This document shows positions 33,164 through 33,850 of a stretch of DNA of 64,000 bases, piece by piece. The translations under genes and the position numbers were made by a program. The stretch lies in assembly GCF_054482525.1 (NCBI RefSeq), contig NZ_CM137006.1; one strand, given 5' to 3'. Position 1 is the stretch's first letter, and the number at the start of each line of letters is the position of its first letter. The notes beneath the pieces are model-generated. The model did not search any database, was not told the DNA's origin, and worked only from the letters and a program-made list of their open reading frames with translations.

Positions 33164-33850
33164 TTAATGCAACGGTTCACCCTTTGTCGCCGCGGCTAAT
33201 GGGCGAATTTTGTCACGGGTATCCCAGACCGGAGGGATTTCATCCAATTTAGTGACAGAAGCTCGTACAAAAGGCACCCGTGCAATAGTCATAATCGTAT
33301 TCAACCAACGGTCACGAATAATGCGATCTGCCCTTTCATGACTCGGATCATCCAGCTCAATAACACAGACTATTTTGTTGTTCTTCTTTGAAACCAGAAC
33401 ATAATCCATTGCCATTCCATTATAAATTGCAAAGAAACGCTTTCTTTCTTCTTCGCTAAACTCGGGTTGTTCTGGAAAGTTGATCAAGCGCCCCAGAGAG
33501 ACCTGGCAATGGATATGACAATAATGTCCAAACCATTTCTCCAGATTATCAAAATAGATTTTTTCACAACGCGTAATTAACCACTCTTTTCCTTCCAATA
33601 AAATACCTTCGGCAACCATTCCATGAAATAACTCATCTCGTTCTTGCCAACGAGAGTCACGATAGGTTTTCTGCGGTGTATAGCTCCTTGTCGACGCCTT
33701 AGCAGCAGGGGAAGTTGCAGAGGAAGGGACTGGTTGCGATTTAGTGATGATTACCGATGAGGCAACTTTTCGTAGTGTCAATTTTCTGGCAACAGCAAAA
33801 CCGGCGACAAATGCAATTGTCAAACAAGTTACAAAAACCATAAAGCTCAT
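33164..33850 (-). CDS. membrane-anchored DUF2726-like protein (restriction-endonuclease-fold family), accessory
   Basis: 228-aa ORF: N-terminal TM helix (res 4-22), Ser/Thr/Pro-rich linker, then a core with CxHxHC (res 111-115) and ...MDYVLVSKKNNKIVCVIELDDPSHERADRIIRDRWL... resembling the DUF2726 signature; sits where K-12 carries ycdU/pga. Confidence 0.6.
   Translation of the reverse strand: MSFMVFVTCLTIAFVAGFAVARKLTLRKVASSVIITKSQPVPSSATSPAAKASTRSYTPQKTYRDSRWQERDELFHGMVAEGILLEGKEWLITRCEKIYFDNLEKWFGHYCHIHCQVSLGRLINFPEQPEFSEEERKRFFAIYNGMAMDYVLVSKKNNKIVCVIELDDPSHERADRIIRDRWLNTIMTIARVPFVRASVTKLDEIPPVWDTRDKIRPLAAATKGEPLH

Follow-up and report, generated by a model that had tools for sequence, protein, structure and literature searches.

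The stretch of DNA analysed here, referred to as the window, comprises 64,000 nucleotides of contig NZ_CM137006.1 (NCBI RefSeq assembly GCF_054482525.1), and our subject is one open reading frame (ORF) of 228 amino acids (aa) that lies between the tRNA-Ser gene serX and phoH. The region is 100% identical to the chromosome of E. coli PCN033, where the gene corresponds to WP_024210258.1, and the product is already named 'DUF2726 domain-containing protein' in RefSeq. serX and the ORF are convergent, with 91 bp between the stop codon of the ORF and the 3' end of the tRNA, and with the terminator hairpin of serX (33089-33102) in the intervening sequence. On one side the locus is flanked by csg-ycdZ-ycdY-ycdX-ghrA, and on the other by phoH-efeBOU-putP-putA. 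The guanine plus cytosine (GC) content of the ORF is 42.8%, as against 50.2% for the window, and that of the region upstream of the ORF is 30-38%, with a minimum of 30%. A preliminary description of this DNA, made from the letters alone, had placed a 228-aa ORF just beyond serX and its terminator, and the ORF is present at exactly that position.

32985..33072, plus strand: serX, tRNA-Ser(GGA), whose 3' end is the attachment (att) core for islands of other strains
33164..33850, minus strand: DUF2726 ORF, 228 aa, with an ATG start; the coordinates include the stop codon

The family assignment rests on a Pfam match to PF10881 (E 2.8e-18, 66.3 bits, model positions 3-116 of 126), which bears out the resemblance to DUF2726 proposed in the preliminary description on the basis of a block, MDYVLVSKKNNKIVCVIELDDPSHERADRIIRDRWL, that is found at aa 148-183. 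DUF2726 is listed among the PD-(D/E)xK phosphodiesterase families (Steczkiewicz et al. 2012, PMC3424549) and has also been called a restriction endonuclease (REase)-fold DNase domain (Anantharaman et al. 2013, PMC3710099). No feature separates the protein from the DUF2726 family; it is a member of a small subfamily (~26 clusters at 50% identity and E <= 1e-30, versus 5568 clusters for the whole family) whose hallmark is an extra conserved N-terminal segment, SRWxxRDELFxGM, at aa 66-78. An AlphaFold2 model, built with a 133-sequence alignment and with a mean predicted local distance difference test (pLDDT) score of 88.6, consists of a low-confidence segment (aa 31-70) followed by a confident alpha/beta domain (aa 71-222), in which the alpha-beta-beta-beta-alpha-beta core of the PD-(D/E)xK, or restriction-endonuclease-like, fold is present, as had been suggested. 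The nearest folds are Vsr, DUF559, I-Bth0305I and RAP, with 12-16% identity to the first three in structural alignments, and Foldseek agrees weakly (best E 1.8e-3). Because a sequence-profile search of the PDB returned no chain even at E <= 10, the domain is placed by fold comparison only. In the model the fold claim holds, though there is no close relative with a solved structure.

33761..33844, minus strand: single N-terminal transmembrane (TM) helix, aa 3-30, from hydropathy, flanking charges and the AlphaFold2 helix
33641..33760, minus strand: Ser/Thr/Pro-rich disordered linker, aa 31-70, from S/T/P content and low pLDDT
33185..33640, minus strand: globular alpha/beta domain, aa 71-222, with a restriction-endonuclease-like fold of the Vsr/DUF559 branch
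33236-33583, minus strand: Pfam DUF2726 match (PF10881), aa 90-205
33311..33565, minus strand: putative active-site span, a Vsr-type 'EDxHD' constellation, with codons read from the sequence
33563-33565 (E96), 33404-33406 (D149), 33356-33358 (E165), 33338-33340 (H171) and 33311-33313 (D180), minus strand: putative active-site codons

Each of the family-invariant residues (E96, D149, E165, D167/D168, H171, R176, R179 and D180, conserved at >=90%) is present in the protein, and D167/D168 also fall within the putative active-site span. E96, E165, H171 and D180 are invariant across the 133 relatives, and D149, D168, R176 and R179 are each found in 132 of them. The canonical lysine of the D...(D/E)-x-K motif is not present, as the third strand reads E165-L-D167; position 146, which is a lysine in 72 of the 133 relatives, is a methionine here. 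The E, D, H and D residues occur in the order seen in Vsr, and the spacing of 9 between H171 and D180 is the same as that between H213 and D222 of I-Bth0305I, an equivalence that is drawn from sequence order and shared fold and not from residue-level superposition. In the EDxHD site of Vsr and I-Bth0305I, a glutamate of the first helix is combined with a Mg-binding aspartate, a histidine that serves as general base, and a further aspartate, and the I-Bth0305I homing-endonuclease family carries an extra conserved acidic residue (PMC3239194), to which E165 corresponds. Catalytic activity, predicted to be metal-dependent, is rather likely. By sequence, the protein matches none of the PDB chains of Vsr (1cw0), DUF559 (3hrl) or I-Bth0305I (3r3p); it lacks the structural zinc site of Vsr, as does I-Bth0305I (PMC3239194), as well as the NUMOD and helix-turn-helix (HTH) DNA-binding domains, and it has a membrane anchor, whereas Vsr, DUF559 and I-Bth0305I are soluble. 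A Cys/His cluster does exist in the domain, but it reads H109-x-C111-H112-x-H114-C115 and not CxHxHC as first described. It is also not conserved: among the 133 relatives, position 111 is Tyr in 61 and Cys in 28, position 112 is mostly Tyr, Arg or Leu, position 114 is mostly Phe, and position 115 is Cys, Pro or Ser. The cluster at aa 109-115 was therefore rejected as a metal site of the family.

A single hydrophobic segment is found in the protein, at aa 3-21 (Kyte-Doolittle 19-mer score of 2.43, with no other window >=1.6), and aa 3-30 are helical in the AlphaFold2 model, in agreement with the single N-terminal TM helix noted at the outset. No basic residues precede the helix, and RKLTLRK follows it. 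This bias is a property of the family: in 118 of the 133 relatives the N-terminus includes a hydrophobic 19-mer, whose median start is residue 3.5, and in these 118 the mean number of K/R residues in the 12 positions after the anchor is 3.4, compared to 0.19 before it, with the C-terminal flank more basic than the N-terminal flank in 114. Residue 2 is often Asp or Glu among the relatives. By the positive-inside rule, the charge bias around the helix predicts an N-out/C-in orientation, and of the two compartments originally considered for the domain, cytoplasm and periplasm, the cytoplasm is the one expected. The linker was likewise correctly recognized, as S/T/P residues make up 47% of aa 29-66 and 12% of the remaining protein, and its pLDDT ranges over 56-76. 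In relatives the linker varies in length, with a median of 41 residues from the end of the TM helix to the equivalent of E96. Taken together, an architecture of anchor, linker and nuclease-fold domain is very likely.

In database entries the anchor is frequently hidden by start codons mis-called at an internal Met. The Salmonella copy is annotated as 151 aa while the intact ORF encodes 219 aa (L097:5797-6456), and it was thus rejected as an anchor-less, N-terminally truncated form. The copy on F plasmids is annotated as 122 aa, with an ORF of 167 aa that includes the TM helix (L014:6881-7384), and copies embedded in type VI secretion system (T6SS) clusters are annotated as 145-150 aa, with ORFs of ~219 aa (P0031-P0044).

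One question regarding a gene in this position is whether it arrived as the cargo of a mobile element that used the tRNA gene as its target, a one-gene defence islet in effect. Several features of the locus are those expected of such an islet: the gene lies only 91 bp from serX; its GC content is low, at 42.8% for the gene and 30% just upstream, versus 50.2% for the window; it is present in only 1049 of 5426 complete E. coli genomes (~19%, at 95.6-100% identity); and islands are indeed integrated at serX in other strains. E. coli carries the gene as a single chromosomal copy save for one hit on a plasmid record, and 1043 of the 1049 copies are full length. Strains without the gene have a different occupant. 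pgaC is present in 4382 of the 5426 genomes, and the counts of pgaC and of the DUF2726 gene sum to 5431, indicating that the two states are essentially mutually exclusive. The K-12 sequence follows the window collinearly as far as 33157 and rejoins it at 34370, and between these points it carries a 10.9-kb pgaDCBA-dgcT-IS3-ymdE-ycdU segment (L002:3101-13961) in place of the gene and its upstream region.

33158..34369, no strand assigned: 1.2-kb cassette, consisting of the gene and its upstream region, that swaps with the pga segment of K-12-type E. coli
33054..33157, plus strand: 104-bp unit in which the 3'-terminal 19 nt of serX are joined to the serX terminator and a GC-rich hairpin

The 104-bp unit is present once in the window, and in four copies in K-12, three in O111:H8 and two in E. 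albertii. The copies are arranged in tandem about every 180 bp (L002:13962-14481; L003:13538-13896), separated by spacers that are annotated as 'RtT sRNA' (small RNA) in RefSeq. In strains that bear islands, the unit forms the island end on the attR side. NT1N34 and O111:H8 have integrase-bearing islands between serX and the DUF2726 gene, in line with the earlier remark that tRNA-Ser genes are classical integration sites. At their distal end these islands close with a directly repeated serX 3' end (CCCCCTCACCGCCAT) and its terminator, followed by the stop codon of the gene. Because the serX repeat precedes the DUF2726 gene, the gene is outside attR. Both islands carry genes of a defence type, namely a TOTE conflict-system primase-domain protein in O111:H8 (L003:2788-5148) and McrBC-family genes in NT1N34 (L004:1463-4799). 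serX is thus a genuine hotspot for defence-type cargo, and the DUF2726 gene is not among that cargo.

The structure of the cassette, and the position of the gene in other genera, are also at odds with an arrival by integration. Within 33158-34369 there is no integrase or other mobility gene, the ORF being alone, and no second direct repeat bounds the cassette at 34369. In E. albertii, a contiguous alignment extends across 33054-37200 at 86% identity, equal to that of the flanks. The order phoH-gene-(serX)-ghrA-ycdX-csg is shared by E. albertii and is general in Salmonella enterica, with a full Salmonella order of putA-putP-phoH-gene-(IS)-ghrA-ycdX-ycdY-ycdZ-csgG, where IS denotes an insertion sequence. 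The Salmonella protein is represented by 3781 index blocks and is near-universal in S. enterica. At the nucleotide level, identity to Salmonella is 79.1% for the DUF2726 gene and 79.1% for phoH. Low GC gives the gene the atypical base composition of a tRNA-integrated island, but the same composition is retained in an orthologue that is as diverged as the core gene phoH, showing that it is an old property and not the mark of a recent arrival. The preliminary description had called the gene the only cargo at a tRNA hotspot; given that islands end at the serX 3' repeat before reaching the gene, and given the synteny with E. albertii and Salmonella, that claim does not stand, and integration as the single cargo of an element at serX, already contradicted by this evidence, is highly improbable.

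The ORF is intact in all six orthologues compared, from three E. coli lineages, Escherichia sp. MOD1, E. albertii and Salmonella. In the domain, the ratio of nonsynonymous to synonymous substitution rates (dN/dS) is 0.07 versus E. albertii and 0.05 versus Salmonella, and over the anchor and linker (aa 1-70) it is 0.42 versus E. albertii. Synteny, a divergence equal to that of phoH, and these ratios together show that the gene is an old, vertically inherited resident of the phoH-serX interval, one that predates the split of Escherichia and Salmonella and is under purifying selection. The same figures bear on whether the protein is a catalytically dead module, limited to DNA binding or to holding DNA at the membrane, or whether the gene is in decay. 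Many proteins of the PD-(D/E)xK fold are inactive, FASTKD4 being one example, the (D/E)xK lysine is missing from E165-L-D167, and one E. coli allele has lost 8 residues of strand beta-1. Against this, the Vsr-type catalytic positions are all invariant across the 133 relatives, the ORF is intact in six lineages with a domain dN/dS of 0.05-0.07, and only six of the 1049 copies in E. coli fall short of full length, such that loss of activity or decay is a distinctly unlikely account of the gene as a whole. The allele in question (P0004, 220 aa) is a minor one that lacks CQVSLGRL of the first core beta-strand, and its product is probably inactive.

In some Salmonella, an IS (with an rve transposase) and a 3' fragment of serX lie between the gene and a T6SS island at serX that includes Hcp and ImpA_N/VasL genes (L005:8710-9965 and 10028-10080). 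Membership of the gene in this island was considered and rejected, as the serX fragment and the IS intervene, and as other Salmonella have ghrA directly after the gene.

The elements that might govern expression of the gene were sought in the ~520 bp between its start codon and phoH.

33851..34369, minus strand: AT-rich upstream region, with GC down to 30%
33876..33881, minus strand: candidate proximal promoter, a perfect TATAAT -10 element 25 nt upstream of the ATG
34373..34399, minus strand: strong intrinsic terminator of phoH, an 11-bp stem with 7 G-C pairs followed by a T-run

An alignment of upstream regions shows that the TATAAT, and the Shine-Dalgarno sequence AGGTGA that follows it, are kept from E. 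coli to Salmonella, and the two are a candidate promoter and ribosome-binding site; a second consensus-like site is found at 34124..34096. The terminator at 34373..34399 separates transcription of phoH from that of the DUF2726 gene. Scans of 33851..34369 found neither a Pho box nor a LexA box, and the sole Pho-box-like site is located upstream of phoH (35626-35643). Co-regulation with phoH is accordingly unlikely, given the strong terminator and the lack of a Pho box before the DUF2726 gene. In the same region no Rfam family reaches threshold and there is no credible small ORF, and a hidden RNA gene or small partner ORF was rejected on these grounds.

Relatives of the same architecture are found in several kinds of genomic surroundings. 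Some are in the chromosomal backbone: beside phoH in Escherichia and Salmonella, beside hrpA for a 62%-identical relative in an enterobacterium, between frmA/fghA and a yegD-like chaperone gene in Xenorhabdus, and between pdxH and purU in Anaerobiospirillum. Others are in elements that move DNA. In integrative and conjugative elements (ICEs), the gene (X) occupies a fixed slot, TraU...TraG_N - small ORF - X - Integrase_1 - anti-restriction genes, which is found in Dickeya, Pectobacterium (two lineages), E. coli and two further clusters, for at least six lineages (L010:8001-8645; L009:8001-8612; L019:8001-8606; L031:4951-5595; L086:7001-7639; L088:7001-7573) that are mutually <=50% identical. 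The slot is followed by a PF12835 integrase and then by a block of ArdA, ArdC, methylase and RadC genes. In F-like plasmids the arrangement is traG-(650-bp ORF at the traS position)-traT-hypothetical-X-traD. The hypothetical gene that precedes X encodes 230 aa with a TM segment of its own (L014:6182-6874), and its product is a possible partner. Among 114 plasmid records with a hit, 99 are conjugative, and papers on mcr-1 have placed a DUF2726 gene on IncI2 and IncX4 backbones. In Vibrio inoviruses a relative (phrog_14167) lies directly after the pIV gene, in two Chromohalobacter genomes inovirus pI/pIV genes are found <=7 kb from the relative, and in one further metagenome-assembled genome (MAG) a pI-like gene is found <=4 kb away.

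A further relative, of the same length and 54% identical, sits inside the operon of one T6SS sub-lineage, where the order is TssM-TssA-X-TssF-TssG-TssJ-VgrG and the gaps measure 17-27 bp. This arrangement occurs in Citrobacter, Enterobacter, Pantoea, K. aerogenes, Salmonella and Rahnella (L017:8001-8660; L026:9932-10630; L029:9797-10483; L034:9953-10603). The embedded copies diverge together with their cluster, at 67% identity compared to 59% for TssA and 85% for TssF, and a relative in Erwinia sits just upstream of vgrG. The literature searched contains no mention of a DUF2726 gene embedded in a T6SS. The gene is not found in the related T6SS clusters of Rahnella aceris (TssF 79% identical), Pantoea ananatis (63%) and K. 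pneumoniae (61%), and it was rejected on that basis as a core or conserved accessory T6SS gene.

These contexts raise the possibility that the protein is an accessory of a machine, whether a T6SS, a conjugative type IV secretion system (T4SS) or filamentous-phage assembly, acting in the cell that produces it, with the chromosomal copy as an orphan. The tight spacing and co-divergence of the T6SS-embedded copies, the Erwinia copy by vgrG, the fixed slots of the ICE and F-plasmid copies by TraG, TraT and TraD, and the inovirus copy after pIV are all consistent with such a role. Yet the close T6SS clusters of R. aceris, P. ananatis and K. pneumoniae have the same gene order without the gene, and the majority of F-like plasmids and inoviruses also lack it. 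Furthermore, in E. coli and Salmonella the gene is preceded by a promoter region of its own, beyond the phoH terminator, and adjoins no secretion genes, the Salmonella T6SS island is cut off from the gene by the serX att fragment, and a nuclease fold has no known role in machines of these types. A machine-accessory function is thus unlikely. Relatives are genuinely associated with elements that carry DNA across the inner membrane, but not exclusively so. The survey of homologue neighbourhoods that the preliminary description had proposed thus gave conjugative plasmids, ICEs, filamentous phages and T6SS clusters, and housekeeping neighbours as well.

With the ORF, its family and fold, the conservation of residues of a catalytic type, the N-terminal anchor, the locus order and the purifying selection established, we infer the orientation, the catalysis, the DNA substrate and the protective role that make up the following mode of action. 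The protein would be a bitopic inner-membrane protein with a periplasmic N-terminus of 2 residues, one TM helix and a flexible linker of ~40 residues, by which a nuclease-fold domain of the Vsr/DUF559 (EDxHD) type would be tethered at the cytoplasmic face of the membrane. The tether would limit the access of a metal-dependent endonuclease to nucleic acid, sparing the nucleoid, and the target would be nucleic acid that appears at the inner membrane face, the most plausible substrate being DNA that enters by conjugation, by filamentous-phage entry or by phage injection. Self and non-self would be told apart by location. On mobile elements such a nuclease might exclude competitors, and on the chromosome it might act as a barrier to entry. 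We tentatively favour this reading, a membrane-sequestered nuclease that acts on DNA entering the cell, while putting it at somewhat under an even chance.

An experimental precedent for discrimination by location is SNIPE, a membrane-bound anti-phage nuclease of E. coli, which has a single N-out TM segment and a cytoplasmic nuclease that cleaves lambda DNA at injection, and which becomes toxic without its TM segment (Saxton et al., bioRxiv 10.1101/2025.11.03.685801). The layout predicted for the DUF2726 protein, with a short periplasmic N-terminus, an N-terminal TM helix and a cytoplasmic nuclease, would match that of SNIPE, and the two have in common a single-gene organization, as well as the proposed logic of membrane sequestration that spares the nucleoid. 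SNIPE consists of DUF4041 and a C-terminal GIY-YIG domain, whereas the DUF2726 protein has neither, DUF2726 being its sole Pfam domain, and is of a REase-like fold, making the two analogous but not homologous. SNIPE is also much larger (its catalytic residue is E414) than the 228 aa of the DUF2726 protein, which lacks an adaptor or DNA-binding middle domain, and SNIPE is patchy across clades, in contrast to the vertically conserved DUF2726 gene. The idea of meeting invading DNA where it enters through the inner membrane is shared with the membrane-coupled nuclease defences Zorya and Kiwa, but these are multi-protein systems with membrane sensors (ZorAB and KwaA; PMC12904381), whereas the DUF2726 protein is single and has no match in PADLOC.

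A number of observations weigh against a nuclease that acts on entering DNA. Stable vertical inheritance at a single locus is unlike the usual turnover of defence genes, the gene is missing from most E. coli strains, and several close relatives reside among housekeeping genes. No sensor or adaptor domain comparable to DUF4041 of SNIPE is evident, no family of PADLOC-DB v2.0 is matched at E <= 1, and there is no match in NCBIfam. The literature searched gives no activity, substrate or phenotype for any DUF2726 protein; what it contains on DUF2726/PF10881 is limited to family listings, mcr-1 contexts and two incidental hits of transposon screens in distant species. Finally, the same fold is found in RNA-binding RAP proteins, so the substrate could be RNA.

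If RNA is the substrate, the protein would cleave or bind transcripts close to the membrane to which it is tethered, in a housekeeping or stress role and not in conflict. FASTKD4, a RAP protein of the same fold, is RNA-binding and has lost the catalytic His. In the DUF2726 relatives, that His is invariant and the motif is of the DNA-endonuclease type, and the characterized bacterial members of this branch, Vsr and I-Bth0305I, cleave DNA (PMC3239194). An RNA substrate would also leave unexplained the repeated capture of the gene by DNA-transfer elements, and the gene is missing from ~80% of E. coli genomes. We regard a role on RNA as improbable, to about the same degree as a machine-accessory function.

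Alternatively, the domain may be a toxin-like nuclease of abortive infection that the tether keeps inactive and that is freed during infection, by envelope damage or by cleavage of the linker, to degrade nucleic acid of host and invader alike, a scheme that is pure inference. The linker is long, accessible to proteases and fast evolving, SNIPE without its TM segment is toxic through DNA cleavage, and relatives are found in conflict-rich ICEs together with toxin-antitoxin and anti-restriction genes. However, no conserved antitoxin, protease or sensor adjoins the gene in any context examined, and release of the nuclease in this manner is a long shot.

Extending the favoured reading of a location-based nuclease to this whole branch of DUF2726 is more speculative. 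The branch might constitute a widespread family of minimal DNA-entry nucleases of the Vsr type, tethered N-out/C-in to the membrane, that cuts the conjugative T-strand, the single-stranded DNA (ssDNA) of filamentous phage and injected phage genomes, though this is doubtful. Such a protein would conceivably serve as an exclusion factor on ICEs, on F-like, IncI2 and IncX4 plasmids and in inoviruses, with one T6SS lineage having adopted it. On the same speculative footing, Salmonella and ancestral Escherichia may have kept a domesticated chromosomal copy as an innate barrier. The branch could then represent a second, independent and much smaller answer to the problem that SNIPE solves, partly hidden by annotation that truncates the anchor, a suggestion to be held as loosely as the others.

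The gene belongs to a known and uncharacterized family and is already annotated as such, and it represents a reasonable lead rather than a discovery. What is added to the present annotation is a family-wide anchor, predicted to be N-out/C-in and hidden by start mis-calls, a complete EDxHD site, a phoH-serX interval with two states, and the fixed positions that relatives occupy in ICEs, in F-like tra operons, in inoviruses and in a single T6SS lineage. Two of these points are useful whatever the function: that the phoH-serX interval holds, in exclusive states, either the DUF2726 gene or the pga biofilm locus, and that many database entries for the family miss the anchor through starts at an internal Met. 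Should the DNA-entry reading prove true, there would be a constitutive one-gene barrier to DNA entry in E. coli of phylogroup D, in some B1/A strains and in nearly all Salmonella, with possible effects on plasmid uptake (as with the mcr-1 IncI2/IncX4 backbones and F-like tra operons), on susceptibility to filamentous phage and on strain engineering, and a function would be assigned to a family of ~5500 clusters at 50% identity.

Three minor observations remain. Opposite the 3' end of phoH, on the plus strand at 34418-34500, there is a match to Rfam Ysr251, a Yersinia antisense sRNA (76.8 bits, E 1.6e-19, model positions 1-83 of 194), which reaches the end of the searched region and for that reason scores under the gathering threshold. 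A MAG labelled 'Collinsella sp.' includes a 1.45-kb contig with 99% identity to the phoH-DUF2726 region of E. coli, and in a contig of 'Chryseobacterium sp. 18061' the PAAR, TssM, TssA, TssF, TssG, TssJ and VgrG proteins are 100% identical to those of the T6SS region of Citrobacter sp. 18056; both of these assemblies (L023/L030) are probably contaminated or mislabelled.

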